Shown here piece after piece: positions 31,297 through 63,549 of a DNA stretch of 64,000 nucleotides. Origin of the DNA: Collinsella sp. (GTDB lineage: Bacteria > Actinomycetota > Coriobacteriia > Coriobacteriales > Coriobacteriaceae); contig DBEYWP010000003.1 of assembly GCA_048183675.1 (NCBI GenBank), forward strand, positions 1,194 to 65,193, read 5' to 3'. The notes beneath the pieces are model-generated. The model had not been told where the DNA came from and did not search any database. It saw only the letters and a list, made by a program, of their open reading frames with translations. The stretch's first letter is position 1; each line of letters begins with the position of its first letter. The translations under genes and the position numbers were made by a program.

Positions 31297-31470
31297 CCGG
31301 AAACCGTATCCCACTTTTCGGGCCAAAAATGGGATGCCGTTTCCCGCTGGGCCCCCTCCGGGAAACGGCATCCCATTTCAAGGGCATAAACCGGGATGTG
31401 GTTTCCCCTAACGGCACCTTTGGGAAGCCGCATCCCACTCTGTACGCACAAAACGGGATGAGCTTTCCCA
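31297..31470. repeat. palindromic repeat family 2: array of six ~21-nt units in alternating orientation (three hairpin modules, period ~62 nt)
   Basis: The units are ccggaaaccgtatcccactttt, aaaaatgggatgccgtttcccg, cgggaaacggcatcccattt, aaaccgggatgtggtttcccc, tgggaagccgcatcccactc and aaaacgggatgagctttccca. The pair 31327..31346 / 31359..31378 is a 20-bp perfect hairpin. Confidence 0.8.
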
Positions 31471-31659
31471 TGGTGATCCAAGACCAGAAGCATGTCCGAT
31501 AGCGCGGCCAGGTCAAGAACAACAAGGCAAGCGTCACGCCAATTTGGACGAGCGTCTGCTGCAGTTTAAGGCTGCTGGCCCATATGGTAGAGTTAACCAC
31601 CCATGAATTTCAGCACACTGCGTGCTACCTGTTCTTTTGTCATTTAGGGAAGTGAACTT

Positions 31660-32751
31660 GTGAATACTTCTGTCGCCAAGAAGGCCAGCCAGGCGGTGCG
31701 CCTGCTCATGATGGTGCTCACGGCAGTTCTCATCTTCTTCTTCATCAATGTCATGCTGCTCGTCTCCGATATCCAGGGCACGGCGCGTATGGTCAACTAC
31801 GCCGGCCTGGTGCGCGGCACCACGCAGCGAATCGTTAAGCTCGAGGACGCGGGCCAGCCTCAAGATGACCTGCTCAAAGCCGTGGATTCATACATCAACG
31901 GTTTGCGTTACGGAAGTGACGACCTCAACCTCGTCCGTCTCGACGACGATGAGTATCAGGCAAAAATGACCGAGCTTGCAAATTATTTTGATGAGCTTTG
32001 CACCGAGATTGCCTGTGTGCGTGAAGTCGGCTACGAGAACACCGATATCATCGCGATGAGCGAGGAGTTCTTTGGTATTTGTGACGATGCTACACGACTC
32101 GCGGAGGACTACTCTCAGGAGAAGGCGTCGGCGCTCAACTATCTCGAGGGCCTGGTGATCATCGACATCATGGGCTTGGTGGCGACCTTTGCGGTCGAAC
32201 TTGTTCGCGCGGTGCGAACTGCCGCGCTCAATCGCGAACTGCAGAACAAAGTCTATCTCGACGAAGCCACAGGACTGCCCAACAAGAACAAGTGCGAGGA
32301 GGTCTTGGGGCAGGAGCAGCCTGTCTCCGCGGAGGCGCCCGTTGCGGTGTGCGTCTTCGACCTTAACAATCTGCATACGGTCAATAACAACTTCGGTCAT
32401 GAGAAGGGCGATGAATACATTCGCTCTTTTGCCCAACAACTGGGAAGTGTGGCATCCGAGACGTGCTTTGTGGGCCGCGACGGCGGCGATGAGTTTATCG
32501 CGGTGCTGCGGGATTCCGATCGGGCTGCCGTGGAGTCCTGTCTCGCTCGGGTCCGTGCGAACGTGAACGAGTATTCCGAGGCTCACCCCGACATGCCCAT
32601 CAGCTATGCGGTGGGCTTCGCGCTTTCCAGTGATTTTGATGAACCGCCTACGATGCGCGAGCTCTTTTCCCAGGCCGACAAGAACATGTACGTCGATAAG
32701 AACCGCGTAAAGACAGCCGAGGCAGCCGGGCCGCAACGCGAGGACCGCTAA
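31660..32751 (+). CDS. GGDEF-domain diguanylate cyclase with N-terminal membrane-anchored helical sensor region
   Basis: GTG start at 31660, with AGGGAAG upstream. There is an N-terminal TM. VNYAGLVRGTTQRIVKLE resembles the PilJ/NarX P-box. The catalytic block is GHEKGDEYI...VGRDGGDEFIAVL. Confidence 0.85.
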   Translation: MNTSVAKKASQAVRLLMMVLTAVLIFFFINVMLLVSDIQGTARMVNYAGLVRGTTQRIVKLEDAGQPQDDLLKAVDSYINGLRYGSDDLNLVRLDDDEYQAKMTELANYFDELCTEIACVREVGYENTDIIAMSEEFFGICDDATRLAEDYSQEKASALNYLEGLVIIDIMGLVATFAVELVRAVRTAALNRELQNKVYLDEATGLPNKNKCEEVLGQEQPVSAEAPVAVCVFDLNNLHTVNNNFGHEKGDEYIRSFAQQLGSVASETCFVGRDGGDEFIAVLRDSDRAAVESCLARVRANVNEYSEAHPDMPISYAVGFALSSDFDEPPTMRELFSQADKNMYVDKNRVKTAEAAGPQREDR

Positions 32752-32762
32752 ACCCGTAGCAA

Positions 32763-32800
32763 AGGGTAGCTAATTTGGGACGGGACTCTTTTGGCTACTT
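32763..32800. repeat. ~36-nt element shared with 63957..63995, overlapping a minus-strand stop codon
   Basis: gggtagctaatttgggacgggactcttttggctactt versus aaggtagctaatttgggacggagcttttttgactactt, about 85 percent identity by eye. Confidence 0.4.
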
Positions 32801-33673
32801 GAGGAGTTGGGCCATGGCGTTGACGAATTTTTGTACTTGGAGGGTTGGCTCGAGCGGGTAGTGCAGGTAGACCGGCACCTCGCGGCCGCATAGGAACGGC
32901 ACGCCCATAAAGGCTGGATGTACGCCCGACCATGCGCCGCAGGTGAGCACCGCGTCGCCTTTTTCCTCGGCCTCGTTAAAGAGTGCGAAGTCGAAGCTGT
33001 CCACGTCGATGACATCCACGCCGCCATCGGCCAAAAGGTCGATGCGCAGGCTGTCCATGGCGTCGTTGCCGTGACGCAGCACGCGCAGGCGCATACCCTC
33101 CAGATCGGCAACCGTGATACGGCTCTTGCGCGCAAGCGGGCTCGTGCGCGGCACATCGATATAAAACGGCACGTTGACGATAAGGAGCTTTTGGCATGCG
33201 TCGCCCCAGCGCGGGGTCGAAAAACTCGACTGCACCACGTCGACCTCGCGGCCCAAGCTGCGCATGACGGTCTCGCGCTCGTCGTAGAGGTCGCTCACCG
33301 GCACGATCTCAAAACGCAGCGACGGCTCCAGCTCGTGCACGCCCGTCCACATCGAAAGCGTCTGGCGGCCCGGGCACATCATCGACACGCCCAGGCGCAC
33401 CGCACCGTCATCGCCCGCCGCGCGTCGGGCACGGCGCAGGGCATCCTCGGACTGACGCATGATCGAGCGCGCATCGTCCACCAGTAGCGCCCCCGCCGGC
33501 GTCACCTTAACGCCCGAATGCGAGCGCTCAAACAACGTAATACCGAACTCGGCCTCGAACCCCGATACCTGCTTGACGAGCGCCGGCGTCGACACGCGTA
33601 ATTTTGCCGCGGCGCGTGAGAAGCTTCCCAGCTCCGCGGCGGCCGAAATAGCCTCAAGTCGTCGATCGTACAC
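32795..33673 (-). CDS. LysR family transcriptional regulator
   Basis: The N-terminus is (V)YDRRLEAISAAAELGSFSRAAAKLRVSTPALVKQV. The GTG at 33673 with GGAGAG 6 nt upstream is preferred over the GTG at 33694. Confidence 0.85.
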   Translation of the reverse strand: MYDRRLEAISAAAELGSFSRAAAKLRVSTPALVKQVSGFEAEFGITLFERSHSGVKVTPAGALLVDDARSIMRQSEDALRRARRAAGDDGAVRLGVSMMCPGRQTLSMWTGVHELEPSLRFEIVPVSDLYDERETVMRSLGREVDVVQSSFSTPRWGDACQKLLIVNVPFYIDVPRTSPLARKSRITVADLEGMRLRVLRHGNDAMDSLRIDLLADGGVDVIDVDSFDFALFNEAEEKGDAVLTCGAWSGVHPAFMGVPFLCGREVPVYLHYPLEPTLQVQKFVNAMAQLLK

Positions 33674-33906
33674 GTCATCTCTCCGTTTTCGCACGTACGG
33701 CCACGCGGAGCCGCAGGGGGTTGTTTTCGCAGGTCACATGCTCAATCAGGTACAAATCGCATCATACAGCGTAAACCTATGGTTAACGCCATTCTAACAA
33801 ATATGCAATTCACCTGCGCAAATGCAAAGCATACGATAACCAGCGAAAACCACGTGGGTCGGTTAATGGGAACGACCCACAGGGAGGCACAAGAAGGGAA
33901 GTTCCT

Positions 33907-34788
33907 ATGAGCAACTGGCTTAAGCTCGAGGGCGATGTCTGCGCCGTGACCGGTGCACTCGGCGGTATGGGCGTCGAGATTTGCCGCGAGTTCGCCCGCA
34001 ACGGCGCCAACGTCGTCCTGCTCGATCTGGACGAGGAAAAGGTCAAGGCCGCAGCCGCCGACCTCGCCGCCGAGTTTGGCATCCACGCCGAGGGCTACAA
34101 GATGAACGCCACCGACGAGGCCGAGGTTCAGGCCGCCGTCGATGCCACCATCGCCGACTTCGGCCGCGTCGACGTTCTCGTCAACACCGCCGGTATCCTG
34201 CGCTTCGCAGCCATGGAAGACCTGCCGCTCTCCGACTGGAACGAGGTCATCAACGTCAACCTCACCGGTTACTTCATCACCTCGCAGCGCTTTGGTCGCG
34301 AGATGATCAAGGCCGGCCAGGGCCGCCTAGTGCACATCTCGACCGTTGCCAGCCACTCCCCCGAGACGTTCTCGGGCGTGTACAGCTCCACCAAGGCGGG
34401 CGTCAACATGATGTCCAAGATGCTGGCTGCCGAATGGGGTCCCTACGGCGTGCGCTCCAACTGCGTCGAGCCCTGCTTCGTTAAGACCCCCATGTCGGCC
34501 AACTTCTACGCCGACCCCGAGGTCGAGAAGAGCCGCAGCCGCCTCATCGCCACGCGTCGCATCGGCGAGGTCAGCGATATCGCCAACGCCGTCATGTTCC
34601 TGGCGTCCAAGCGCTCGGACTTTACCACCGGCGATGCCATCAAGGTCGACGGCGGCTTCTCCAACATGATGGGCGACCTCACCGCCAAGCCCGGCGGCCG
34701 TCGCGCCTATGCCGACAACTACCTTAAGAACAAGGGTGTCGAGCTTTGGTCCGATGAGTCCGGCGTCGCCAAGCCGACTGACCAGTAA
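33907..34788 (+). CDS. SDR family oxidoreductase
   Basis: TGALGGMG Rossmann motif, NTAG and the catalytic YSSTK. Confidence 0.85.
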   Translation: MSNWLKLEGDVCAVTGALGGMGVEICREFARNGANVVLLDLDEEKVKAAAADLAAEFGIHAEGYKMNATDEAEVQAAVDATIADFGRVDVLVNTAGILRFAAMEDLPLSDWNEVINVNLTGYFITSQRFGREMIKAGQGRLVHISTVASHSPETFSGVYSSTKAGVNMMSKMLAAEWGPYGVRSNCVEPCFVKTPMSANFYADPEVEKSRSRLIATRRIGEVSDIANAVMFLASKRSDFTTGDAIKVDGGFSNMMGDLTAKPGGRRAYADNYLKNKGVELWSDESGVAKPTDQ

Positions 34789-34854
34789 ACCAACCTGACA
34801 GGGAGGCCCCGCGGACACGCCCGCTCCTCCCCCGCATCGATTAGAAAGAGTCCA

Positions 34855-36111
34855 ATGGCTTCCACCAACTCCAACAAGGGTCGCGCCGTCGTGCTTTCCG
34901 CCGCGTGCGTCACCATGTTCTTCATCAGCTCCATCGCGCTGTATTCCGTCGTGAGCAAGAACCTGCTCGCCGTCTACCCCGAGTGGTCGAGTGCCCTTAC
35001 CTGGGCTTTCCCCGTCTTTCAGACCATCATGGCCGTGACGGGCATCTTCGCCGGCCGCATCTCCGATAAGATCGGCCCGCGCAACGTCGTGATCGCCGCC
35101 GCCGCGTGCTACGGCCTGGGCTGGTTCATGTCCGGCACCGTCACCGAGCCGTGGCAGTTCTACCTGTGGTTCTCGCTCGTCGCCGCCATCGGCAACGGCC
35201 TGGGCTACAATCCCGCGCTCACCACCGGCCAAAAGTGGTTCATCGACAAGAAGGGTCTCGCCTCCGGCATCACCCTGGCCGCTTCGACCGCCGGCCCCGC
35301 CGTGCTGTCCCCGGTGCTCGCCTCGCTACTCATCCCGAGCCTGGGCATCTTTGGCGCCCTTAAGGCGCTCGGCGTCATCTTCTTTGTAATGATCGCCGCC
35401 TCCGCCCTGTTCCTGAAGGCCCCCGAGGCCGGTTGGCTGCCCGAGGGCTTCGAGGCCCCCAAGGGCGGCGCACACGCCGGCACCTTCGGCGACCTCACCC
35501 CGGGCGAGATGGTCAAGACCCCGCGCTTCTGGGTCCTCATCATCACCTTCGCCTTTGCCGCCACCGCGGGCACCCTGCTCGTCGGCAAGGTTGCCTCCAT
35601 CGCCGCCGTCCAGCTCTTCACCGACCCCACGAGCGCCGCGGCCGTCGCCCTCGGCGGCGTGGTCGTCTCCGTCAACACCTGCGCCAACCTGGTTGGCCGC
35701 CTGTCCTTTGGCCAGATCATCGACAAGCTCGGCGCCTATAAGTCGCTGCTAATCAGCCTTGTCGTCACCATCGTCGCGCTCGTCATCATGTCGATGAGCT
35801 TTACGCAGACCATGTTCTTTGTGGCGCTCGCCCTGCTCGGCTTTAGCTTTGGCGCCCTGCTCGTCATCTACCCGCCGCTCACCGGCGGCGCCTTCGGTAC
35901 CAGCAACATCGGCGTCAACTACGGCATCATGTTCCTGGGCTACGCCGCTTCCACCTGGATCAGCCAGCCCATCACTGCCGTGCTGTATCACGCCGAGGCC
36001 GGCAGCGCCGCCTACCAGCAGTCCTTCTACGGCGCCATTGTGATCGCCGCCATCGCCGTCGTGCTCACCGTCTACATGATGGTCTCCGACAGCAAGAAGA
36101 AGTCTGCCTAG
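34855..36111 (+). CDS. MFS transporter (oxalate/formate antiporter-like)
   Basis: 12 TM segments, with the GRISDKIGPR loop motif between TM2 and TM3. Confidence 0.85.
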   Translation: MASTNSNKGRAVVLSAACVTMFFISSIALYSVVSKNLLAVYPEWSSALTWAFPVFQTIMAVTGIFAGRISDKIGPRNVVIAAAACYGLGWFMSGTVTEPWQFYLWFSLVAAIGNGLGYNPALTTGQKWFIDKKGLASGITLAASTAGPAVLSPVLASLLIPSLGIFGALKALGVIFFVMIAASALFLKAPEAGWLPEGFEAPKGGAHAGTFGDLTPGEMVKTPRFWVLIITFAFAATAGTLLVGKVASIAAVQLFTDPTSAAAVALGGVVVSVNTCANLVGRLSFGQIIDKLGAYKSLLISLVVTIVALVIMSMSFTQTMFFVALALLGFSFGALLVIYPPLTGGAFGTSNIGVNYGIMFLGYAASTWISQPITAVLYHAEAGSAAYQQSFYGAIVIAAIAVVLTVYMMVSDSKKKSA

Positions 36112-36120
36112 TTTTACCGA

Positions 36121-36151
36121 CGTGACAAAGGGACTGCCCCTTTGTCACATT
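36121..36151. repeat. palindromic repeat family 1, intact copy inside an operon
   Basis: cgtgacaaagggactgcccctttgtcacatt lies 10 nt after the MFS stop and 30 nt before the next start codon. Confidence 0.9.
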
Positions 36152-36180
36152 CCACCGGCCACCAGTATTAAGGAGTCGAA

Positions 36181-37221
36181 ATGTCTGAGCTCAATCCCGT
36201 CCGCATTGCCGTTATCGGCGCCGGCGCCATGGGCCGCAACCACATCCGCTTTGTCACCGAGGAGCCCGAGGCCGAGCTCGTCGCCATCGCCGACGCCTTT
36301 GAGGGCGCCCGCGCCACGGCCGAGGCCGCCGGCGTGCCGTTCTTTACCGATCCCGCCCAGATGATGGACGAGGTCAAGCCCGAGGCCGTCATCATCGCCA
36401 CCCCCAACGACCTACACCTGGGCGTTGCCCGCGAGGCCGTAAAGCGCAACATCGTGCCGCTGGTCGAAAAGCCGATCTCCAACGACCTGGAAGATGCCCA
36501 GGCCTTCGCCGCCGAGGCCGAGACCGCCGGCGTGCCCGTGCTCGTGGGTCAGCACCGTCGCCACAACCCCTTCGTCAACAAGGCCAAGGAGATCATCGAG
36601 TCCGGCGAGCTGGGCAAGCTCACCGTGTCGAGCTTCCACTACATGATCTATAAGAATGACGAGTACTTCGACGTCGAGTGGCGCCGTAAGAAGGGTGCCG
36701 GCCCGATCCTGGTCAACCTGGTTCACGACGTCGACCTGCTCCGCTACCTGCTGGGCGAGCCCGTTGCCGTCCAGGGTATGCAGTCCAGCGCCGCCCGCGG
36801 TTTTGAGACCGAGGACTCCGCCGTGGTCAACGTCCGTTTTGCCGATGGCGCGCTCGCAAGCATGACCATCTCCGACGCCACCGCCAGCCCCTGGAACTGG
36901 GAGGCAACCGCTCGCGAGGATCCGCAGTACCGCCCCTTCGACGCCGACGCCTACTTTATCGGCGGCACTAAGGGCGCCCTGTCGCTGCCCCGCCTGCACC
37001 AGTTCTCTTACGACGGCGCCTCCAACTGGCACAAGCCGCTGCAGATGGAGATTCCGGCCGTGGACCCGGCGCTGCCGCACAAGATGCAGCTCAAGCACTT
37101 TGTGAAGGTCGTCCGCCGCGAGGTCGAGCCCGTCGTGACCCCCGCCGATAACGTCAAGACGCTCACGCTTCTCAACGCCATCAAGGAGGCCGCCGAGACC
37201 GGCCAGCTCGTCGAGCTGTAA
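36181..37221 (+). CDS. Gfo/Idh/MocA family oxidoreductase
   Basis: RIAVIGAGAMGRNH Rossmann motif and the EKP motif (VEKPIS). AAGGAG lies upstream of the ATG. Confidence 0.85.
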   Translation: MSELNPVRIAVIGAGAMGRNHIRFVTEEPEAELVAIADAFEGARATAEAAGVPFFTDPAQMMDEVKPEAVIIATPNDLHLGVAREAVKRNIVPLVEKPISNDLEDAQAFAAEAETAGVPVLVGQHRRHNPFVNKAKEIIESGELGKLTVSSFHYMIYKNDEYFDVEWRRKKGAGPILVNLVHDVDLLRYLLGEPVAVQGMQSSAARGFETEDSAVVNVRFADGALASMTISDATASPWNWEATAREDPQYRPFDADAYFIGGTKGALSLPRLHQFSYDGASNWHKPLQMEIPAVDPALPHKMQLKHFVKVVRREVEPVVTPADNVKTLTLLNAIKEAAETGQLVEL

Positions 37222-37282
37222 TGCTGTATTAGGGCAGGCCTCGGCAGAAACCCCATGCCGAGCCCTTCGGTCCGCCACCAAC

Positions 37283-37333
37283 AAGCCCCTCTTCTTTGCC
37301 CTGCGAGCAGCCTCCTGCCCGCGGGGCTTTTTG
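37283..37333 (+). terminator. weak terminator candidate after the Gfo/Idh/MocA gene
   Basis: aagcccc...ggggctt closes a GC-rich loop and is followed by ttttt. The stem is short. Confidence 0.35.
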
Positions 37334-37392
37334 CTACCTTGCCGACGATTATTCTGGAGCGAGGCTATTTTGCGCCTCAGCTTGGTTCGTTC

Positions 37393-37552
37393 GCCACGAA
37401 ATGGGCCTATCTACTACGTTTAACCGATCGCCCTCAAGCATGCCGAATTTCGCGAGATAAAAACCGCAGGTAAACGGCTTGCCGACTTTCGGAAAACCCA
37501 GGTATGGTCAGCCCCTACGGGTAAAACGTAGTAGATAGGCCGTTTTCGTGGC
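37393..37552. repeat. 29-bp inverted repeat (2 mismatches) flanking a 102-nt core, upstream of tex
   Basis: gccacgaaatgggcctatctactacgttt (37393..37421) pairs with aaacgtagtagataggccgttttcgtggc (37524..37552). Confidence 0.7.
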
Positions 37553-37634
37553 GCGGCCCCAAAACAGCCTTTTGGGACGGGTGGTATCCTTGGTAGCCCT
37601 GTGCTGCAAACGCACCTTAAACGCAAGGAGTCCC

Positions 37635-39782: not shown

Positions 39783-39786
39783 ACCG

Positions 39787-40008
39787 TCAAAGCAAGGGTA
39801 CCCCCTGCAGCGACGTGCAAAATCGCGAGTATTCTGCAAATTCCGCCGTTCCGGATGTCCCTCAGAGACGAAAAAGCAAAAAAACAGCCCCCGTTTTAGC
39901 GTCATCAGAGCCAAAACGGGGGTCGTTCCGTGCTTCGATTAACTGGTAAAAGCCTTTACCTTGCTGAATACTCTCAATTTTGCACGTCGCGGGCGGGGGT
40001 ACCTTTGA
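39787..40008. repeat. imperfect ~45-bp inverted repeat flanking a ~130-nt core containing a terminator hairpin
   Basis: The left arm tcaaagcaagggtaccccctgcagcgacgtgcaaaatcgcgagtattc pairs with the right arm gaatactctcaattttgcacgtcgcgggcgggggtacctttga. Shared blocks are ggtaccccc, gcgacgtgcaaaat and agtattc. Confidence 0.55.
39888..39922 (-). terminator. hairpin terminator (U-run on the minus strand) between tex and the transaldolase gene
   Basis: cccccgtttt / aaaacggggg. On the minus strand it is followed by ctgtttttttgcttttt. Confidence 0.6.
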
Positions 40009-40062
40009 ACACGGCAGGATATGGAAGCCGATTACCAACCTACTGGCAAGCTCGTGCCGGCA

Positions 40063-40140
40063 GCCCCGGCCTTCCCTTTCCCTAGCGCAACTCTCGCAAA
40101 GCGCGTGAGCGATAGGGAAAGGGAAAGGGAAGGCCGGGGC
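40063..40140. repeat. long GC/purine-rich hairpin downstream of the transaldolase gene
   Basis: gccccggccttccctttcccta pairs with tagggaaagggaaagggaaggccggggc. The right arm carries one extra gggaaa unit. Confidence 0.7.
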
Positions 40141-40170
40141 GAACAGCCCACGGCGCAGCCAGTGTTCGCC

Positions 40171-40875: not shown

Positions 40876-41104
40876 CTGCCTGATTCCTTTCGTCTGCATA
40901 CGGCCGGTAAGCTGCTAAACACTTTACCTGTGTTTATCAAGGCTTAAACTGCGGGTTTTTATCTTCTCGGCGAACGGTTTTGCAGATTTACCATTTTTAT
41001 ATCGACGCCCCAGCGGCAAAACGTTTTTGCCGATCATCGCGGTTGATTCCGTTCACGGAACAGAAGCAGCGCCTTGCCGGCTCGTTTTCACAATCGCCCC
41101 AAAG

Positions 41105-41142
41105 CAAAAAGCGGTGACGCCTCATTTGAGACGTCACCGCTT
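41105..41142 (-). terminator. intrinsic terminator after the PTS IIC gene
   Basis: aagcggtgacg / cgtcaccgctt, with a U-run on the minus strand. Confidence 0.7.
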
Positions 41143-53680: not shown

Positions 53681-53803
53681 AAGCCGGTTTCCTCCCAACT
53701 TTAATGTTCGAAGGGATTATAGATAATCGGCCCATGTTTGAATGGCACTGTTTTCCCAGCTAGATAAACATTTATACGGCCTTTAGGCCACCGCGGCGAT
53801 ATG

Positions 53804-53836
53804 GAATGTGACAAAGGGACGGTCCCTTTGTCACAT
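53804..53836. repeat. palindromic repeat family 1, intact copy
   Basis: gaatgtgacaaagggacggtccctttgtcacat lies 4 nt downstream of the nitroreductase stop codon. Confidence 0.9.
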
Positions 53837-53839
53837 CCG

Positions 53840-54712: not shown

Positions 54713-54926
54713 CGCCCTGCCCTCGCCATTTCTTTAAGAAGCCTTTACGTTTCCGTGTAATTCCCGTCCATTATCGCGCAGGTCGCCACTACATTGCGCC
54801 ACACCGCCGCACATGCGCGTTAATATGGCTGGTTGTTGTGCGCAGCCCGCAAATGCAGCGCATATTTAGGTAACAATCGGGTAAACCCCCGCTTTCGTAG
54901 GTTTTAAGTTTGTGAGGAGTCTCAGC

Positions 54927-57227
54927 ATGTTCGCTGCCGCCATCTCGCTCGTCGGCCTTGCGGCGACCGTCTACCTTGTTTTGCGCGAGGCCAAGGCCAT
55001 TCGCGCTCAGTCGGGCACCGTCACCAAGGGCGCCTTCGCCTGGAGCGTCGCCTTCGGCCTGTTCCAGCTCTTTTTGACCGTCTGGGGCGCTATTGGCCTC
55101 GTCGCGCAAAACGAGCCGCTCGCCTTTGTGATGCTCATCCTGACCAACGCCATCCTCACCGGGTGCGCCTGGGCCAGCATCGCCCGCGACCGCATCGCCC
55201 CACGCGTCTTTGCGTTCGCTGCTACCGATGCCCCCACTCCCACCGGCAAGCTCGCCCGCCTGCGCGGCGCCTTTGTGGGCAAACCGCTCGTCGCCGCCGT
55301 CCTGTGCCTGCTGCTCGCCGGCGTCTTTGCGCTGCTGGGCATGGAGGTCTCGTCCAACCACGACTTTACCTGGGTCTACCCCCTGTGCATCCTGCTCGAG
55401 TGGGCCATCATCACCACGCTCATGGTCGGCCTGTTCTTCCTGTTCCAGCGCCACGGCGCAGCTCCCGCGGTCCTGGCCTTTGCCCTCTTTGTCCTGGGCA
55501 TTGCCGAGTTCTTCGTCATCACGTTTAAATCCATGCCCATCCAGCCGGGCGACCTTTCGGCCATCTCCACCGCCGCTGCGGTCGCCGGCACCGGCTACAC
55601 CTTCTCGATCTCGCTGTTCTGTGTGCTGTCCATGGGCTTTACCGCCATCGCCATGCTGCTATGCGAGTACGCCGGCCTGGTGGCACCGCACCGTCAGAAG
55701 GGCGCCGCCAACGCCAAGCGCATGCTGCTCACCAACCTGCTCGTGGCAGTGCTGTGCCTGGGCGGCGTGACCGCACACGTCACGCTCATCGACTACTACA
55801 ACACCCTCGGCATCACCGTCTACACCTGGCGCCCGCTCGAGAGCTACTGGCGCGAGGGCTACCTGCCCGCTTTCATTAGCGCAGCGCAGTCCATCAAGCC
55901 GCCCAAACCCGCCGACTACTCCGTCGACGATGCCAAAGCCACGCTCAAAAAGTACGCCAAGGCCTACGACAAGTCCGACGCTGCCAAGAGTGACGAGCGC
56001 ACCGCCGCAAAGGAGCAGTTCGACAGCGAGAAGCCCACGGTCATCGCCATCATGAACGAGACCTTCTCGGATCTGTCGATCTACCAGAACATGCGCGCCG
56101 GCTACGAAGGCCCGCAGTACTTTAAGAACCTGTCCAACTGCCTCAGCCGCGGCAAGCTCTACGTGAGCGCCTACGGCGGCGGCACCGCCAATACCGAGTT
56201 TGAGTTTATGACCGGCAACTCCATGGCCAACCTGGGCTCGGGCGTGTACCCCTACACCATCTACAACATGGAAACGACCGGGAATCTGGCAGAGCAGTTC
56301 AAGTCGCTCGGCTATTCCACCACCGCCATGCACCCCAACCACGCGACCAACTGGAACCGCGAGAACGTGTACAAGGACTTTGGCTTTGACCAGTTCCTGT
56401 CCATCAACGACTTCCAGGGAGCCGACACCCTGCGCGGTATGGTGACCGACCAGGCGACCTACGACAAGATTCTTGAGCTGCTCGACCAGAACGCCGATCC
56501 GCAGTTTATCTTCGACGTGACCATGCAGAACCACTCGGGCTACGACACGGGCCTGCTGCCGGCCGACAAGCAAATGCACCTGAACATCGACACGACCGAC
56601 CTGGACACCAAGACCGTCGAGGACGGCACACTGTCCGATGTCGACGAGTACGTCTCGTGCATCGAGCAGTCCGACCAGGCGCTGCGCTACTTCCTCAACG
56701 CCTTGAGCAAGCTCGACCGCAAGGTGGTCGTGGTGTTCTGGGGCGATCACCAGCCGTTCTTCCCGTCCAAGTTCAACGACAAGTGGTTTACCGGCGAGGA
56801 CGACGCCACGCACCAGGAACGTCTGTGGCAGACCGATTACATCATCTGGGCCAACTACGACGTTGCCGGCTGCGACCAGACGAGCGAGACCGACGACCTG
56901 TCCACCAACTACCTGTCCACGCAGCTTATGCAGCTGATCGGCGCCCCGCTGACCGACTACCAGAAGGCGCACATGACGCTGCGCGAGTCGCTGCCCGCCA
57001 TCAACTCGGTGGGCTACGAGGACGCCAGCCTGCGTTGGGCGCTCTCCTCCAACGTCACCGGCGACGACGCCGCCGCAGCAGCCGCCACCAAGGCGCGCGA
57101 GGATTACGCCAAGATGCAGTACTACGAGATGTTCCGCGACGGCAAGAACGTGTACACCGAGCACTTCCAGACCGAGGCCAACGAGACCGATCCCAACCTG
57201 GCGCCGGGCACGACCAAGATCAAGTAG
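54927..57227 (+). CDS. LTA-synthase/sulfatase family membrane protein (phosphoglycerol-transferase-like)
   Basis: An N-terminal block of about 8 TM segments is followed by an extracellular alkaline-phosphatase-superfamily domain (MNETFSDLS...GTANTEFEFMTGNS...HPN...GDHQP). Start at the ATG at 54927, with GAGGAG upstream. Confidence 0.85.
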   Translation: MFAAAISLVGLAATVYLVLREAKAIRAQSGTVTKGAFAWSVAFGLFQLFLTVWGAIGLVAQNEPLAFVMLILTNAILTGCAWASIARDRIAPRVFAFAATDAPTPTGKLARLRGAFVGKPLVAAVLCLLLAGVFALLGMEVSSNHDFTWVYPLCILLEWAIITTLMVGLFFLFQRHGAAPAVLAFALFVLGIAEFFVITFKSMPIQPGDLSAISTAAAVAGTGYTFSISLFCVLSMGFTAIAMLLCEYAGLVAPHRQKGAANAKRMLLTNLLVAVLCLGGVTAHVTLIDYYNTLGITVYTWRPLESYWREGYLPAFISAAQSIKPPKPADYSVDDAKATLKKYAKAYDKSDAAKSDERTAAKEQFDSEKPTVIAIMNETFSDLSIYQNMRAGYEGPQYFKNLSNCLSRGKLYVSAYGGGTANTEFEFMTGNSMANLGSGVYPYTIYNMETTGNLAEQFKSLGYSTTAMHPNHATNWNRENVYKDFGFDQFLSINDFQGADTLRGMVTDQATYDKILELLDQNADPQFIFDVTMQNHSGYDTGLLPADKQMHLNIDTTDLDTKTVEDGTLSDVDEYVSCIEQSDQALRYFLNALSKLDRKVVVVFWGDHQPFFPSKFNDKWFTGEDDATHQERLWQTDYIIWANYDVAGCDQTSETDDLSTNYLSTQLMQLIGAPLTDYQKAHMTLRESLPAINSVGYEDASLRWALSSNVTGDDAAAAAATKAREDYAKMQYYEMFRDGKNVYTEHFQTEANETDPNLAPGTTKIK

Positions 57228-57254
57228 CGACTAGCTGCGAGTTCATAACTGAAA

Positions 57255-57384
57255 CGTCTGTCCGGGCGGAGGCATATAAGGTTCCCTGCTCGGACAGTCC
57301 TGCGCAAGACGGAGGCCACATTAAGTGGCCTCCTTTGCGTGCGGAACTCGCGATGAACCTTATATGCCTCCGCCCGGACAGACG
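57255..57384. mobile_element. MITE-like element: 29-bp perfect terminal inverted repeats around a 72-nt core
   Basis: cgtctgtccgggcggaggcatataaggtt (57255..57283) pairs with aaccttatatgcctccgcccggacagacg (57356..57384). The core holds a 9-bp hairpin ggaggccac-atta-agtggcctcc. No coding capacity and no obvious target-site duplication. Confidence 0.4.
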
Positions 57385-57437
57385 CCCTGTTGTTGGAGCG
57401 CGGCTTGTCATGGGGATACCCGCAGCATATACAAGTT

Positions 57438-57464
57438 AAAGGCCACGTCATGTGGCCTTTTTTG
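57438..57464 (+). terminator. intrinsic terminator
   Basis: aaaggccac-gtcat-gtggccttt followed by tttg. Confidence 0.7.
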
Positions 57465-57467
57465 AAT

Positions 57468-57674
57468 CCGGAAACCGTGTCCCAGAATTCACGTCCGGAG
57501 TGGGATGCAGTTTCCGCTTACGGCCCCGTTGGGAAACTCCATCCCACTCCGATCGCAAATTCCGGGTCGCATTTTCCACCAGATCCCTCAATCGGAAATT
57601 GCATCCCACTCCAAAGGCAAATTCTGGGACGCACTTTCCGAAACCCCATCCATCAGGAAAGCCCTTCCCACTCT
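57468..57674. repeat. palindromic repeat family 2: second array, seven units in alternating orientation (period ~62 nt)
   Basis: The units are ccggaaaccgtgtcccagaatt, ggagtgggatgcagtttccg, tgggaaactccatcccactcc, aaattccgggtcgcattttcc, ggaaattgcatcccactcc, aaattctgggacgcactttccg and aggaaagcccttcccactct. Like the array at 31297, it starts with ccggaaaccgt a few nt after a terminator T-run. Confidence 0.75.
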
Positions 57675-57854
57675 GAATACATCCAGCGAACGTATGCGAG
57701 CGTGTTGTCCAGAACGGCCTCGTCATCGAGGTGATGGAAAATGTCACCCCAAACGCTTGCCACGGTTGCGTCCACAAGTGTCAAGAAAAAAGCCTCGAGA
57801 ATCTCGAGGCTTTCACGTTTGTACGATTGAACGCGCGGCACCGCGAGCGACGGT

Positions 57855-58412
57855 CTACTCGCCCAAAACGGCCTTCTTGGCGGCTGCGGCCATGTTGTCC
57901 AGGTCTTCCTTGGTGGGATGGTCCTTCGCGGCAACCCAGTTGTCGAGCAGCATCTTATAGCGAGCGTTGTCGGGATCTTGCTCGAGCATGGCCTCGTAGC
58001 GCTGCTTGACCGCGGGGCCCATCTTGCCCTGGCACATCGCCCAGCCCGCAAGCTCGGCATCCCCAGCCAAATTGGAAGTCACGCGATCAATAATCTGCTG
58101 GTAATAGCTCTGGTCGGCGCCAAAACCGCAGGTGCCAAACAGGAAGACGCGCTTGCCGTGCAAGGCGGAGAGCAACGCCGCGACCGAAGGCGTGCACGCG
58201 CCCTTGTCGCACCAAAAACCGACGAGCACCGTGTCGGCCGTGCAGGCGCCCTGCGCCTCGAGCGCAACCTGATCTGCATCCGCATCATCGCTCAACGCCG
58301 CGGCATGGACAAACTCAACACCCGCAGCCTGCAGAGCGCGCTTGATCGCGCCCGAAACCATCCTAGTATTACCGCTCTTGCTGTTAACCACCAAAGAGCA
58401 CGTCATAGTCAC
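57855..58412 (-). CDS. flavodoxin-like fold protein
   Basis: The N-terminal LVVNSKSGNTRMV (flavodoxin phosphate loop) is present. Length 185 aa. Start at the GTG at 58412 or the ATG at 58406. Confidence 0.65.
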   Translation of the reverse strand: MTMTCSLVVNSKSGNTRMVSGAIKRALQAAGVEFVHAAALSDDADADQVALEAQGACTADTVLVGFWCDKGACTPSVAALLSALHGKRVFLFGTCGFGADQSYYQQIIDRVTSNLAGDAELAGWAMCQGKMGPAVKQRYEAMLEQDPDNARYKMLLDNWVAAKDHPTKEDLDNMAAAAKKAVLGE

Positions 58413-58517
58413 GTTGCCTCGTTTCCCCCAAAACTAAAGCCACTAATGCAATTTATTAGATGAATATCTTAGTACTAACGACGCAGATGTAAACCATCTG
58501 CCGCCAATCGGTGGCCC

Positions 58518-60377
58518 CTACTGGGCAAACTGGCTGCGGTAGAGTTCGGCGTAGAAGCCGCCTGTCGCTAGCAGCTTGTCGTGTGTACCGCGCTCGATAA
58601 TCTGGCCGTCGCGCATCACCAGGATGCAGTCGGCGTTGCGAATCGTGCTCAGGCGATGCGCCACGACAAAGCTTGTGCGACCTGCTATGAGCTCGTCGAA
58701 TGCCACTTGCACCTGTAGCTCGGTGCGCGTATCGATGCTCGAGGTCGCCTCGTCCAGCAGCAGAATCGCCGGGTCGGTGAGCATGACGCGCGCGATGCAC
58801 AGCAGCTGTTTTTGACCCTGGCTAAACGTGCCACCGTCCTCGCCGATGACCGTATCGTAGCCGCTTGGCAACTGCACGATAAACTTGTGCGCGTGCGCGC
58901 GCTTGGCGGCTTCGACAACCTGCTCGCGCGTAGCTCCTGGGCAACCGTAAGAGATGTTGTCCGCCACCGTGCCCTCGAACAGCCAAGTGTCCTGCAGCAC
59001 TATGCCAAAGGCGCGGCGCAGGCTTGCGCGCGTGTAGTCACGCGAGGAACGGCCATCGACCGCAATGCGACCGGCATCGATATCGTAAAAACGCAGTAGC
59101 AAATTGATGAGCGTCGTCTTGCCACAGCCCGTAGGACCGACCAGGGCAAAGCGCATGCCGGGCTTAGCCTCGATGCAGATGTCCTGCAGCAGCCTGCGGT
59201 CGGGCACGTAGCTAAAGTCCACATGCTCAAGGGCGACCTCGCCCTGCGGTGCGGCAAGTTCCACGGCATCTGGCGCATCGGGCTCCTGCTCGCGCGCATC
59301 GAGCAGCGCAAACATACGGCGCGCCGAGGCATACGCCGTCTGGATCTGCGTAATGACGTTGGTGATCTCGTTGAACGGCTTGGTGTACTGGTTAGCATAG
59401 GACAGGAAAATCTGCACGCCGCCCACCGTAAGCGTCGCCGGCACGCCCGTGATCACGCCCACGCAGCCGATCACAGCGACCACGGCATAGATGATGTTAT
59501 TGATAAAGCGTGTGCCGGGGTTGGAGAGCGAACCCATAAACTGCGCGCGCTCGCCCGCGGTGTAGAGCTCGGCATTGAGGGCATCGAAGCGCTGCTGAGC
59601 GTTGGGGCCATAGGAAAAGGCGTCGACAAGCTTTTGCTCGCCTACGTACTCCTCGATATGACCGCCGAGCTGCCCTTGAATACGCTGCTGCGTCGTAAAG
59701 CTTTTGTTGGAAAGCTTGGCAATAGCACCGGCTGCAAAAATGGAAAGCGGCGTGACGAGTACCACCACAAGCGTCATGGTCAGGTTAATGGAGAGCATAA
59801 ACGCGAGCGTGCCCACGATGGTGATAACGCCGGTGAAGAGCTGCGTGAAGCCCTGCAGCAGACCGTCGCCCACCTGGTCGACGTCGTTGACCACACGGCT
59901 CATAAGGTCGCCGTGAGCATGGCTGTCGATAAAGCTGAGCGGCATACGGCTGAGCTTATCGCTCGCCTCCACGCGCATGTCGCGCACCGTTTCGTAGGAC
60001 AGGCGGTTAACGCAATAGCCCTGTAGCCACTGGAAGGCCGCGGCCCCCACCACGACGAGCGCGAGTTTGGTAACAAGCGGCAGCAGCGCGTCGAAGTCCA
60101 CCTGCCCGGCGGCGACGATAAGGTCGATGCCCTCGCCGATGAGAATGGGCGTATAGAGTTGCAAAATCACCGAGACGGCGGCACTCACAAACGACGCTAC
60201 AAACGAAATGCGATGCGGGCGAACATAGCCCAGCAGGCGGCGGGTCACCGCACCCACGGGATAGCGCTCGGGATCGCCGGGCTGGCGCGGACCGTCGCCC
60301 AGGTCGTTGAGGTTATCGTTACCGGACACGTTGGCCGTCATCGTGGCGACCGAACCGGAGGAAGTGTACGGATTCAT
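58518..60377 (-). CDS. ABC exporter, fused permease/ATPase
   Basis: Walker A GPTGCGKTT, signature FSQGQKQLLCIARV and Walker B LLLDEATSSID. The start abuts the upstream stop. Confidence 0.9.
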   Translation of the reverse strand: MNPYTSSGSVATMTANVSGNDNLNDLGDGPRQPGDPERYPVGAVTRRLLGYVRPHRISFVASFVSAAVSVILQLYTPILIGEGIDLIVAAGQVDFDALLPLVTKLALVVVGAAAFQWLQGYCVNRLSYETVRDMRVEASDKLSRMPLSFIDSHAHGDLMSRVVNDVDQVGDGLLQGFTQLFTGVITIVGTLAFMLSINLTMTLVVVLVTPLSIFAAGAIAKLSNKSFTTQQRIQGQLGGHIEEYVGEQKLVDAFSYGPNAQQRFDALNAELYTAGERAQFMGSLSNPGTRFINNIIYAVVAVIGCVGVITGVPATLTVGGVQIFLSYANQYTKPFNEITNVITQIQTAYASARRMFALLDAREQEPDAPDAVELAAPQGEVALEHVDFSYVPDRRLLQDICIEAKPGMRFALVGPTGCGKTTLINLLLRFYDIDAGRIAVDGRSSRDYTRASLRRAFGIVLQDTWLFEGTVADNISYGCPGATREQVVEAAKRAHAHKFIVQLPSGYDTVIGEDGGTFSQGQKQLLCIARVMLTDPAILLLDEATSSIDTRTELQVQVAFDELIAGRTSFVVAHRLSTIRNADCILVMRDGQIIERGTHDKLLATGGFYAELYRSQFAQ

Positions 60378-62234
60378 TTAGCAGCCCTCCTTTGCGCAGA
60401 CAGATGCGGGGACGGTCGGAGCGGACGCGGGCGTCGTGCTCCCCTGCTGGCCCTCGAGTTCCTCGCGGCGCAGCTGCGACTGGCAAATCTCGCGATAGAG
60501 CTGGCAGGTCGTGTACAGCTCGTCATGCGTGCCCAGGCCCGCAACCGAGCCGTGGTCGAGTACGCAGATCATGTCGGCGTCGCGCACGGTCGAGACGCGC
60601 TGGCTCACAATGACGGTCGTGAGCGGCAGCCCGCCCTCGACGGCACCGCGCACGCTGCGCTCGCGAATGGCATGGCGAAGCGCCGCGTCGGTCTTAAAGT
60701 CGAGCGCCGACGCGGAGTCGTCCATGATCAGAACCTGCGGCGAGCCCACCAGGGCACGCGCGATGGTCAGGCGCTGGCGTTGGCCACCGCTGAAGTTCTT
60801 ACCGCCCGCCTCGACCGGGGCATCGAGCCCCTGCGGCTTGTTGCGCACGAACTCGCTCGCTTGCGCCATATCGAGCGCTGCCCAGAGCTCCTCGTCGGTC
60901 GCCGACTCGTCACGCCAGGTCAGGTTGCTGCGGATTGTGCCGCTCACCAGCGATGCGCGCTGCGGAACGGTCGCGACCACATGGCGCAGCTGATCGAGCG
61001 GCCAGGTGCGCACGTCGGCGCCCATCACGCTCACGCTGCCGGTGCTCGCATCGTACAGGCGCGGGATGAGCGAGACGAGCGTGGACTTGCCGCTGCCCGT
61101 GCCGCCGATAATGCCGAGCGTTTTGCCCAGCGGCAGCTCCAGGGTCACATCGCTCACGGCATTTGCCGCGCCGGCGCCAAACGAGAAGCTCGCATGGTCA
61201 AAGCTCAGCGCAGGGACCGGAACAGCGCCACCCGTCAGGTCGCTCGGCTCAGACAGCGCGACCGGCTGGTTGCCCTCGTCAGCGATGCTCGGCACGCAAT
61301 TGAGCACCTCGTTGATACGCGACGCGCTGGCGCTCGCCTTGGTAAAGACCACGACCAGGTTGGCGACGTACACGATGGAGGTGAGCGTCTGCGTCATGTA
61401 GTTCACAAACGCCATGACCTGACCCTGCGTGAGCTCGCCCACGTTGACCTGGATGCCGCCCACCCACAGGATGGCGCACACGCCCAGGTTCATCACAAGA
61501 AACGTGACGGGATTAAGGATCGACGAGAGCTTGCCCACCGCGATGGCAGTATTGGCCTGGTCATCGGCGGCTTGGGCAAAACGCTCGCGCTCGTGGTCCT
61601 CACGCACAAAGGCGCGAACAACGCGGGCGCCCGAAAGCCCCTCGCGGCAGATAAGCGCGATGCGGTCGAGCTTTGCCTGCAGCTGCCTGTAATACGGGAT
61701 ACAGCGCGCCATGACAAACCAAAACACCAGGCCGATAGCGGGCGTGCAGATCAAGAAGATCATGCCGAGCTTAAGGTCGATGGCAAGGGCCGCGCACATA
61801 GAGCCCACCGCCAAGAAGGGCCAGCGGATGAGCATGCGTACGCCCAGCGCCACAGCGAGCTGCACCTGGTTGACGTCGTTGGTGATGCGGGTGATAAGCG
61901 ACGGCGTGCCAAAGCGGTCGAGTTCGGCATAGCTCAACTTGTTGATGTGCTGGTAGAGCGCACCGCGGATATCGGTGCCCATGCCCTGCGAGGTGAGCGC
62001 CGCCATCTTTTGGCAGACGAGCGTAAACGAGATGCCGATCACAGCCATGGCGCCAAGCAGCATACCGTAGTGGACGACGGCGTTGACATCGTGTGCGCCA
62101 ATACCCTTATCGATCATCTGGGCAATCACCAGCGGCGTCAGCAGGTCAAAGATCACTTCGATCAGCTTACACGCAGGGCCAATCACCATATACCGGCGAA
62201 ACTTACCACCAAAACGCCTGAGCAGCTCAATCAT
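60378..62234 (-). CDS. ABC exporter, fused permease/ATPase (partner)
   Basis: Walker A GGTGSGKST, signature FSGGQRQRLTIARAL and Walker B LIMDDSASALD. Start at MIELL (ATG at 62234), with GGGAG upstream. Confidence 0.9.
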   Translation of the reverse strand: MIELLRRFGGKFRRYMVIGPACKLIEVIFDLLTPLVIAQMIDKGIGAHDVNAVVHYGMLLGAMAVIGISFTLVCQKMAALTSQGMGTDIRGALYQHINKLSYAELDRFGTPSLITRITNDVNQVQLAVALGVRMLIRWPFLAVGSMCAALAIDLKLGMIFLICTPAIGLVFWFVMARCIPYYRQLQAKLDRIALICREGLSGARVVRAFVREDHERERFAQAADDQANTAIAVGKLSSILNPVTFLVMNLGVCAILWVGGIQVNVGELTQGQVMAFVNYMTQTLTSIVYVANLVVVFTKASASASRINEVLNCVPSIADEGNQPVALSEPSDLTGGAVPVPALSFDHASFSFGAGAANAVSDVTLELPLGKTLGIIGGTGSGKSTLVSLIPRLYDASTGSVSVMGADVRTWPLDQLRHVVATVPQRASLVSGTIRSNLTWRDESATDEELWAALDMAQASEFVRNKPQGLDAPVEAGGKNFSGGQRQRLTIARALVGSPQVLIMDDSASALDFKTDAALRHAIRERSVRGAVEGGLPLTTVIVSQRVSTVRDADMICVLDHGSVAGLGTHDELYTTCQLYREICQSQLRREELEGQQGSTTPASAPTVPASVCAKEGC

Positions 62235-62322
62235 GTATAGGCGCTCCCTATCATCATCCACATTCAATTCGAACCATGATAGTACCGCCACCCCAAAAGA
62301 AGCGTAAACAACTCGTCATTTC

Positions 62323-62340
62323 TAATGGGATTCGGTTTCC
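62323..62340. repeat. possible solitary degenerate unit of repeat family 2
   Basis: taatgggattcggtttcc compared with the consensus aaatgggatgccgtttcc. Confidence 0.3.
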
Positions 62341-62449
62341 AAAGAAGCGGAAAGGCACGCGCACACCCAGCCAGTGTCGGGTCGACCGCCTGATATACTT
62401 ACATTAGTGCTACCAAGTTAGTCACCGACCCTTGAAATGAGGTGCCGAG

Positions 62450-63463
62450 ATGAACGACATTCTCGCAAGAAGAGCAAGACGAGCAACTGTGGGCATCGCC
62501 CTTTCCGCGGCACTTGTCGCGGGAATCGCCCCCGTAGCGGCGATCGCGGCAGAAACCAGCTCCCCCACCGGTGCAGTTGCCTTGCAGACGGAAGATGCGG
62601 CCGCCGCAAAAGAAAAAGCGTATGCAGCCATGCAGGAAGCGCTCAAAAACCTCGAGGCCGCAAAAGACGCCGCAAGTCCCGAGAAACTTGCGGAAATCGA
62701 TGATGACATTGCCGCTTTTCAAGAGATCTACGACATGGTGGTGACGGAAGCCGCCAAACGGAGGGAACCCCTTCCCGCCATGCAAGCGAACGTCGATGCA
62801 GCCCAAGCCAAATACGATGAGGCCCACAACCGGACAAGCGGCCTTCAGGCAGAATTAGATAAGGCACTTGAAGCACTCGGCGACGAGGAGCCCAGCACAG
62901 CTATTAAGGAGCATATTAAGCAGTTGCGCATGGAGATCATGACGGCACAAAGGCGAGAAGAATCTTGTGAAGATGATCTTCACCGCTACCAACGCCGGCT
63001 CGAAAGCCAGGAAAAACAGGTTCAGTATTTCGAAAGTAAGGCAAAGGAAGCTAAAGCCCACATCGACGAGGACATAGCCAAGCGAAATGCGCTCCTTAGC
63101 GATTTGGAAAAGGCGCAAGCGGCCTATGACGACGCCTGCAAGGCATACGAAGAGGCGAAAGCCGCGGCAGACAAGGCCGCCTCACCCGAGATAACGCAAG
63201 CGACCGAGACGACGCCTCCCTCCAACTCAGCGCAACCGGCCGAGACGGCACAGCCCGCCAGCTCGCCCGCGACCGGCAAAAATACCCCGCCAAGCTCCAC
63301 CAAGCAGGCGAACTCGAGCAGCGGCAAGCAAGCAGATACGACCGCCGGCAAGCTCGCGAACACGGGCGACACAGCACCGAGCGCAATAGCACTCGCAGGA
63401 ATCGCCGCCATGGGGCTCGGAATAACCGCCACAGCCACACGCCGCATCAGGAACTCAAAATAG
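62450..63463 (+). CDS. coiled-coil cell-wall-anchored surface protein (LANTG sorting signal)
   Basis: Signal peptide MNDILARRARRATVGIALSAALVAGIAPVAAIAAE, a long heptad-like A/E/K-rich region, a P/S/T-rich stalk, and LANTG followed by a hydrophobic helix and RRIRNSK. Confidence 0.8.
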   Translation: MNDILARRARRATVGIALSAALVAGIAPVAAIAAETSSPTGAVALQTEDAAAAKEKAYAAMQEALKNLEAAKDAASPEKLAEIDDDIAAFQEIYDMVVTEAAKRREPLPAMQANVDAAQAKYDEAHNRTSGLQAELDKALEALGDEEPSTAIKEHIKQLRMEIMTAQRREESCEDDLHRYQRRLESQEKQVQYFESKAKEAKAHIDEDIAKRNALLSDLEKAQAAYDDACKAYEEAKAAADKAASPEITQATETTPPSNSAQPAETAQPASSPATGKNTPPSSTKQANSSSGKQADTTAGKLANTGDTAPSAIALAGIAAMGLGITATATRRIRNSK

Positions 63464-63506
63464 CCGCCAACGGCTATTGGCTCCGCCAATCCACAAGTCC
63501 AGAGAC

Positions 63507-63549
63507 AAAATGAGGTCCGTTTCCCCAACCCAGGGAAACGGGCCTCTTT
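63507..63549. repeat. single hairpin module of repeat family 2, acting as a probable 3-prime hairpin of the surface-protein gene
   Basis: aaaatgaggtccgtttcccc-aaccc-agggaaacgggcctcttt. The left arm matches aaaatgggatgccgtttccc at about 16 of 20 positions. Confidence 0.6.

Follow-up and report, generated by a model that had tools for sequence, protein, structure and literature searches.

Two intergenic arrays in a Collinsella contig

The subject of the present work is a family of intergenic repeats in Collinsella, recognised through two arrays in a 64,000-nt stretch of a Collinsella sp. contig (DBEYWP010000003.1, assembly GCA_048183675.1, positions 1,194 to 65,193 of the forward strand), which is called the window throughout. 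In both arrays a bipartite core of 15 nt, GGAAA-N5-TCCCA (orientation F), alternates strictly with its reverse complement (R). Array 1 (31299-31468) has six cores and array 2 (57470-57670) has seven, and the step from one core start to the next is always 31 nt. The cores of array 1, 15 nt each, begin at 31299 (F), 31330 (R), 31361 (F), 31392 (R), 31423 (F) and 31454 (R), and those of array 2 at 57470 (F), 57501 (R), 57532 (F), 57563 (R), 57594 (F), 57625 (R) and 57656 (F), the R core at 57563-57577 being degenerate with two mismatches. When neighbouring cores are taken together as F-R modules, array 1 consists of three modules of 46 bp (31299-31344, 31361-31406 and 31423-31468) joined by 16-nt linkers (31345-31360 and 31407-31422), and array 2 of three modules (57470-57515, 57532-57577 and 57594-57639), followed by an F core at 57656-57670 that has no partner. 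The original prediction, made from the letters of the window alone, had described a block of about 21 nt in two orientations, with six and seven alternating copies and a period of about 62 nt between copies of like orientation. The copy numbers and the alternation were borne out in both arrays, and the period follows from the 31-nt core steps and was also detected by Tandem Repeats Finder (TRF), but the conserved part is a 15-nt core within a 31-nt unit rather than a 21-nt block.

Both arrays stand well above background. With at most one mismatch allowed, GGAAANNNNNTCCCA matches the window 15 times against 2.4 expected, a number that none of 100 shuffles reached, and the 16-mer of the original prediction matches 10 times against 0.8 expected. 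A profile of the family, searched with nhmmer, gave E-values down to 1e-17 at array 1 and, over the window, nothing above noise apart from the two arrays. Each array opens with ccGGAAACCGT(A/G)TCCCA just past a hairpin and T-run, as had been noticed before, and folding supports the hairpins. A terminator-like hairpin with a T-run at 31251-31290 (+ strand; -23.1 kcal/mol, z = -5.7), downstream of the ABC-transporter gene at 29207-31126, ends 8 nt before array 1, and a second at 57438-57464 (+ strand; -14.9 kcal/mol, z = -4.5), after the sulfatase-family gene at 54912-57227, ends about 6 nt before array 2. A simple terminator scan overlooked the hairpins upstream of both arrays (the one at 31251-31290 has a 9-nt loop) and folding was used instead. 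On the far side of array 2, the terminator-like hairpin at 57785-57814 (- strand; -17.9 kcal/mol, z = -4.6) belongs to the convergent flavodoxin gene at 57855-58412 (Flavodoxin_3), so that this array lies between two convergent terminators.

Two additional places in the window had been put forward as members. The first, a possible degenerate solitary unit at 62323, corresponds to the core TGGGATTCGGTTTCC at 62326-62340 (- strand), between the divergent genes 60378-62291 (-) and 62450-63463 (+). It matches the core pattern with no mismatch, yet the family profile gives it only E = 0.1; hand arithmetic predicts about 0.12 zero-mismatch core matches by chance in 64 kb, and its membership is uncertain. 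The second, a single hairpin at 63507-63549, does not belong to the family. Its 14-bp stem and 7-nt loop (63512-63546; -28.2 kcal/mol) lie between the gene for an LAxTG surface protein and that for the signal recognition particle (SRP) RNA; only GGGAAACGG is shared with the repeat, the TCCCA half-site is missing and the profile finds no match at E <= 10. It is an ordinary terminator-like hairpin. The window as a whole is a piece of Collinsella chromosome with a G+C content of about 61%, and its gene content includes paired ABC exporters, a GGDEF protein, the LAxTG surface protein and the small SRP RNA gene (63815-63910, - strand; RF00169, 62.5 bits), which is the sole Rfam match in the window above its gathering score.

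Distribution and abundance of the family

The two-core pattern (cores 31 nt apart) was scanned in 185,579 species, one genome per species, for which about one chance match is expected by our own estimate. The original prediction had allowed that the unit might be missing from relatives; it was instead found in at least 120 loci. Judged by record title, the named ones among the matches listed belong to Collinsella, chiefly to the C. aerofaciens complex, or are given as Coriobacteriaceae; not covered by this are some bins titled 'uncultured bacterium' and two others that carry the labels Ruminococcus sp. and Firmicutes bacterium. The family is seen here only in the genus Collinsella. Counts of units, arrays, spacings, contexts and sites given below for the whole family are taken from the listed loci, and L-numbers denote the loci or genomes that were compared.

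Viral contigs and phage records were also searched and contained no copy of the repeat. In the plasmid collection the only real match is a 900-kb C. aerofaciens record, which carries ribosomal protein operons, secY and infA and is therefore chromosomal; a 38-nt match in a plasmid of Escherichia marmotae (E = 0.5) looks like chance. The 900-kb record (NZ_OY725717.1 in PLSDB, with L127 its positions 470001-520000) bears the label 'plasmid 6' of C. aerofaciens TSDC17.2-1.1.

When sorted by shared flanks, 136 arrays fall into about 17 groups, which represent orthologous sites. The 900-kb record has 17 BLAST places, both strands counted. Since these figures agree with each other and with the two arrays in 64 kb, they suggest, as an indirect count, that a genome contains about 20 arrays, made up of perhaps 100-250 units.

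As far as can be told, the family is previously undescribed, which agrees with the original prediction, whose author knew of no description. Rfam searches of the window and both arrays, at gathering scores and by E-value, returned no family for the arrays and only weak, scattered matches well below threshold, and no account of the family was found in the literature on Collinsella with REP (repetitive extragenic palindromic), intergenic or inverted repeats. The Collinsella-1 RNA motif (RF01700) was considered as a candidate and rejected, its seed sequence being unrelated to the repeat.

Anatomy of the repeat

From 1010 units the consensus is s-GGAAA-s-Y-G-Y-R-TCCCA, with the core positions 95-100% conserved (A14 76%) and the N5 and linkers variable. 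The distance from F to R is 31 nt in 395 of 398 adjacent pairs, and the three that deviate (29 and 93 nt) are taken to be artefacts of near-palindromic or skipped cores; from R to the following F it is 31 nt in 236 pairs and 30 nt in 63. Most arrays begin with F and end with R, and the module is therefore defined as F, a 16-nt linker and R (46 bp), that is, GGAAA-N5-TCCCA, an asymmetric linker of 16 nt, and TGGGA-N5-TTTCC. Modules follow one another head to tail, joined by a second linker of 15-16 nt, which gives a period of 61-62 bp. The inner linker, GAAT...YCRRAR, is fixed at 16 nt, and because it is asymmetric the units come in two flavours, while the outer linker tends to TTGAG..CTCAA. 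Arrays contain from 2 to 18 cores. Inside a single core only GGGA and TCCC can pair, forming 3-4 bp around a 7-nt loop.

Constraint on letters and spacing rather than on pairing

Rates of change were measured in eight subgroups of orthologous arrays that align without gaps, using 120 nt of flanking sequence for comparison. The ten core letters show 0.018 changes per site, the linkers 0.060, the flanks 0.083 and the N5 0.119. The core letters therefore change 4.6 times less often than the flanks (Fisher p = 5e-8), the difference between core and N5 is equally clear (p = 5e-9), and that between N5 and flanks is not significant. Changes within the N5 are nearly all C/T or A/G transitions on one side only, with CG often toggling with TG or CA, and it is possible that they arise from cytosine methylation and deamination. 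One such toggle is seen between GCGTCCCA and GCATCCCA in orthologous arrays (e.g., L016 165-612). Judged from these alignments, purifying selection acts on the letters of GGAAA and TCCCA and not on pairing, and since the 31-nt step is invariant, the spacing appears to be selected as well.

Pairing between units had been part of the original prediction, in which each period was one hairpin of 17-20 bp. For the best copies this is correct. The perfect 20-bp stem reported within 31327-31378 exists, 31327-31346 pairing with 31359-31378 in the R-linker-F register, and it is part of the minimum-free-energy fold; the alternative register proposed between neighbouring units is likewise real by sequence and by folding. 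As a property of the family, the hairpin did not hold. In the F-R register, 104 diverse modules have 87.2% of cells paired against 87.6% in shuffles, and in the R-F register the corresponding figures for 103 segments are 76.2% and 77.5%, so that neither shows pairing beyond what column composition gives. Covariation scores were at or below the shuffled means in both registers, and the stem covariation that had been anticipated is thus absent. Watson-Crick frequency in the N5 and linkers equals the expectation from column composition, with the linkers even lower, and the N5 of adjacent units are no more complementary than those of units two or three steps apart. About 13 of the 15 core positions are pairable on average when G-U is counted. 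Given that there is no excess of pairing, the stems are a by-product of inverting a conserved motif, the perfect 20-bp stem of the window excepted.

Genomic context and array dynamics

By crude gene calls based on G+C at third codon positions (GC3), 35 arrays lie between convergent, 43 between tandem and 6 between divergent genes. Many begin 5-21 nt past a terminator or directly past a stop codon, and in some (groups 2, 3 and 10) the array follows right after the stop codon with no separate terminator. The tabulation of array sizes, flanking terminators and copy numbers that the original prediction had called for gives 2-18 cores per array, many arrays starting 5-21 nt past a terminator, and differences in steps of 62 bp.

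Array 1 has orthologues in L075, L095, L110, L117, L118 and L124, six genomes with three modules each. At the same site L056 has a single module, the result of an exact in-register deletion of 124 nt (2 x 62) with its junction within a core. L123, a more distant relative whose GGDEF protein is 88% identical, has no array there and about 68 further nt are also missing; as the sole usable relative with an empty site, it offered no clean insertion boundary and no evident target-site duplication. Elsewhere a single site carries 4-15 or 2-18 cores in different genomes. A gene caller places an open reading frame (ORF) of 70 aa across array 1 in L001 (2631-2843) and L124 (765-977), equivalent to about 31290-31502 of the window. 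The 62-nt period and the indels of whole units make it almost certain that the call is false and caused by the repeat, and such spurious calls are a practical consequence of the arrays.

The first 108 nt or so of array 2 are orthologous to an array, here array B, in L111, L016 and L101, with one alignment of 91.6-93.9% identity spanning the upstream gene and continuing into the array. In those three genomes array B is followed by a 4.3-kb segment with a single gene for a 1378-aa fn3-domain protein (L111 1182-5318, - strand, between arrays at 863-1092 and 5385-5832) and by array A, which has 15 cores; the window has one array at this site and lacks the fn3 gene. At site A (L016/L111) one side of the 15-core array is unalignable between genomes and the other is 85-100% conserved, so that array A sits at a break in synteny. 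Downstream of xdh, arrays separate a gene for a 332-aa protein from one for a DUF234 AAA ATPase, and either gene can occur or be lacking irrespective of the other. An insertion sequence (IS) of the IS3 type lies 74 nt from the array downstream of xdh in one strain; in NZ_OY725717.1, IS3 and IS21 elements and an AbiE toxin-antitoxin pair adjoin the array downstream of xdh.

Arrays thus gain and lose units in 62-bp steps, by slippage or by unequal recombination between cores; their behaviour is that of minisatellites, and at the borders of variable genes they act as substrates for recombination. They mark the turnover of accessory genes, including those for the 1378-aa surface protein, the DUF234 ATPase and the nuclease-like protein described below, and they are ready-made variable-number tandem repeat (VNTR) markers for strain typing.

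A different palindromic element, resembling a miniature inverted-repeat transposable element (MITE), occupies 57260-57380 of the window, right after the stop codon of gene 54912-57227. It has perfect inverted arms of 25 nt, GTCCGGGCGGAGGCATATAAGGTTC and its complement, about 70 nt apart. A copy with 81% identity, in inverted orientation, lies beside array A in L111 (5890-6029). It may be the element that the original prediction had listed as its repeat family 1.

A gene bracketed by the largest arrays

The 332-aa gene downstream of xdh (L079 4900-5898, + strand; 6001-6999 in L128, L129 and L130) is bracketed by the largest arrays, which hold up to 17-18 cores. Sequence searches of Pfam, NCBIfam and PDB gave no match for its product, which belongs to a family with 3568 distant representatives at E <= 0.001 and invariant D, E and K residues in the pattern D...ExDGxxK. 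Two of 65 relatives have a weak match to AbiEi_4. The AlphaFold2 (AF2) model of the protein is a confident one (pLDDT 94). Its best Foldseek matches are all weak (E >= 0.17) and mostly to PD-(D/E)xK nucleases, among them McrC, the AdnAB nuclease, I-Bth0305I and the DUF559-like NGO0050. The protein is predicted to combine an AbiEi-like winged-helix N-terminus with a Vsr/DUF559-like PD-(D/E)xK nuclease fold. A homologue with 46% identity in another organism has no flanking arrays, and L074 has arrays at the locus downstream of xdh without the 332-aa gene. Any link between this protein and the repeats is speculative.

What the arrays may do

By its structure and behaviour the repeat is a dispersed minisatellite family with an architecture like that of bacterial interspersed mosaic elements (BIMEs) and their REP units. 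As to function, the reading preferred here, at a probability of about 0.5, is that the arrays serve, as duplex DNA, as a platform to which a protein binds. That selection bears on the letters and not on pairing points in this direction, and the geometry of the arrays would suit it. The half-sites, 5 bp each, are 10 bp apart from centre to centre, which would correspond to one helical turn, and successive cores, 31 bp apart, would be separated by three; with such phasing the arrays would most likely act as duplex DNA. A sequence-specific protein would contact two adjacent major grooves at each core, and proteins bound along an array would form a row on a single face of the helix, each of the two linkers having a two-fold axis at its midpoint. 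Candidate consequences of binding are a domain boundary or insulation, the handling of supercoils (compare gyrase and integration host factor, IHF, on BIMEs), and recombination.

Several observations weigh against this proposal. Solitary cores are not enriched outside arrays, the 24 present in 876 kb being close to chance by our own estimate, and the family is therefore unlike an ordinary regulon operator. The arrays have strong potential to fold as RNA (z = -7.5 for array 1 and -6.7 for array 2), and the invariant core pairs fit a hairpin of two 5-bp helices around a 5x5 internal loop, with which recognition as folded single-stranded DNA or RNA is compatible. The comparison of orthologues covers only the eight alignable subgroups, all from closely related genomes, and the number of sites per genome is an indirect figure.

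It is rather unlikely that the arrays act instead as RNA or as single strands, in which case transcribed 3' extensions would fold into rows of hairpins that shield mRNA from 3' exonucleases or back up termination. Such roles, in protecting mRNA 3' ends or in termination, have been shown for the REPs of E. coli. The position of the arrays at gene 3' ends, in some cases directly past a stop codon with no separate terminator, would suit this role, as would fold energies far better than those of shuffles and the high share of pairable core positions when G-U is counted. Many arrays, however, are situated past a canonical terminator or have convergent terminators on both sides, covariation is absent in both registers, the N5 change no more slowly than the flanks and only on one side, and the distance from F to R is exact to the base, which a hairpin loop does not need.

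Equally improbable in our view is a selfish element of the MITE kind that does nothing for its host, or one similar to REP doublets forming hairpins (REPINs), whose cores are kept because a nuclease or transposase acting in trans copies the module. The enzyme could be an unrecognised analogue of a REP-associated tyrosine transposase (RAYT), or the array-flanking protein with its winged helix-turn-helix (wHTH) and PD-(D/E)xK regions. The module can be seen as 15-bp terminal inverted repeats around a 16-bp centre, and the modules have somehow reached about 17 sites with no shared flank homology; the conserved 332-aa gene bracketed by the largest arrays resembles a REPtron, and an IS3 element lies 74 nt from an array. 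Set against this, there appear to be few sites, and many species share them as orthologues, which indicates that spread is rare, and the low rate of core substitution is seen in vertical descent, where the ability to be copied goes untested. Neither a target-site duplication nor a clean empty site was seen, L123 lacking about 68 nt in addition to the array, and a tblastn search of 1.02 Mb of Collinsella DNA, a weak test, found no IS200/RAYT-like gene. The 332-aa protein has, moreover, a 46%-identical homologue elsewhere that is without flanking arrays.

Doubtful, and less probable than either of these, is a two-part system in which the arrays are the DNA half and a non-HUH protein is the other. 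The 332-aa protein, or another Collinsella protein, would then read GGAAA-N5-TCCCA, with the arrays as its phased platform for binding or cutting, and the arrays would mark the borders of cassettes of one gene each, every cassette being gained or lost on its own. If true, this would be the counterpart, in an actinobacterium and with a non-HUH protein, of the REP-RAYT system, and would have something of the flavour of an integron.

Independent structured small RNAs, or an element akin to a riboswitch, would account for the stable predicted folds and are very improbable: at gathering score there is no match to any Rfam family and those by E-value are weak and scattered, Collinsella-1 (RF01700) differs in sequence, scans of the array regions found no promoter-like site, covariation is lacking, and a single site may have anything from 2 to 18 copies. 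A small protein or an array of clustered regularly interspaced short palindromic repeats (CRISPR) can be practically dismissed, for despite the 70-aa call over array 1, the several frames open across it and the regular spacing, the 61/62-nt period is not a multiple of 3 and shifts the frame at every unit, no frame would survive the 124-nt in-register indel or the 30/31-nt indels in the linkers, the units alternate in orientation, the 'spacers' are semi-conserved, and no cas-like gene occurs among the scanned or called neighbours (transporters, GGDEF protein, sulfatase, flavodoxin and xdh). The original prediction had named a conserved small protein as the outcome that would count against it, and the period, the frame-breaking indels and the orientation reject one.

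Comparison with known repeat systems

Of the known systems BIMEs come closest in architecture, and the likeness to them that the original prediction had drawn is well founded in several respects. Like BIMEs, the Collinsella arrays are extragenic clusters at gene 3' ends, with strictly alternating orientation and variable copy number; they have two unit flavours (compare Y and Z) and two alternating types of linker, and they serve as recombination substrates. They lie beside terminators and are present in relatives. In other respects the likeness fails. A REP is an imperfect palindrome of 20-40 nt with a 5' GTAG, whereas the Collinsella unit has an internal complement of only 3-4 bp, forms no stem of its own, and gives rise to palindromes only between neighbouring units. 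Its spacing is fixed to the base at 31 nt and what is constrained is a bipartite 5+5 motif instead of a stem. By the indirect count a genome has about 20 arrays, against hundreds of REP sites, and the host is an actinobacterium; the literature consulted on REPs, BIMEs and RAYTs is mainly about Proteobacteria. No RAYT was seen either: tblastn with the TnpA of IS200 against 1.02 Mb of partly redundant Collinsella DNA gave none at E <= 1, a single-sequence query of a kind that misses distant RAYTs.

REPINs offer a parallel to the 46-bp module, in which two inverted cores likewise stand on either side of a short spacer, and the conserved gene flanked by repeats recalls a REPtron. REPINs, however, are dispersed singly in hundreds of copies with arms that are kept complementary, and the Collinsella modules are found in tandem arrays at few sites with no covariation between arms. 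The partner of REPINs is an HUH Y1 transposase, whereas the flanked Collinsella gene, a candidate link, specifies a wHTH and PD-(D/E)xK-like protein. The inverted cores of 15 bp could serve as terminal inverted repeats, as in a MITE. CRISPR arrays, with direct repeats, unique spacers and adjacent cas genes, are unlike the Collinsella arrays, which alternate in orientation, have semi-conserved linkers and show no cas-like gene among the neighbours scanned or called.

The mycobacterial interspersed repetitive units (MIRUs) are minisatellites of the same phylum, whose units, 40-100 bp long and in tandem, are found at a few dozen dispersed intergenic loci and differ in number between strains by whole units. 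The Collinsella repeat has the same properties of a dispersed minisatellite or VNTR, namely a period of 61-62 nt, several intergenic loci and whole-unit differences in copy number. MIRUs are direct repeats along the operon, often with small in-frame ORFs, and differ in this from the Collinsella unit of two inverted cores, the period of which is not a multiple of 3; the two have no sequence similarity. Centromere-like and iteron arrays, such as the 43-bp repeats of sopC in F, parC of R1 and the iterons of plasmids, are alike in being helically phased rows of motifs in which the letters are kept and the sequence between them is free. They occur at one locus per replicon beside the gene for the binding protein and are mostly direct repeats, in contrast to the alternating arrays at about 20 chromosomal sites in Collinsella.

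The family is best filed with the REP/BIME kind of intergenic repeat, from which it is set apart by its bipartite, selected core, its base-exact helical phasing, the lack of stem covariation and the apparently low number of sites. Collinsella aerofaciens and related bacteria rank with the commonest Actinomycetota of the gut, and the two-part motif, the base-exact phasing and the selection on letters make the question of which protein reads the repeat a directly testable one.

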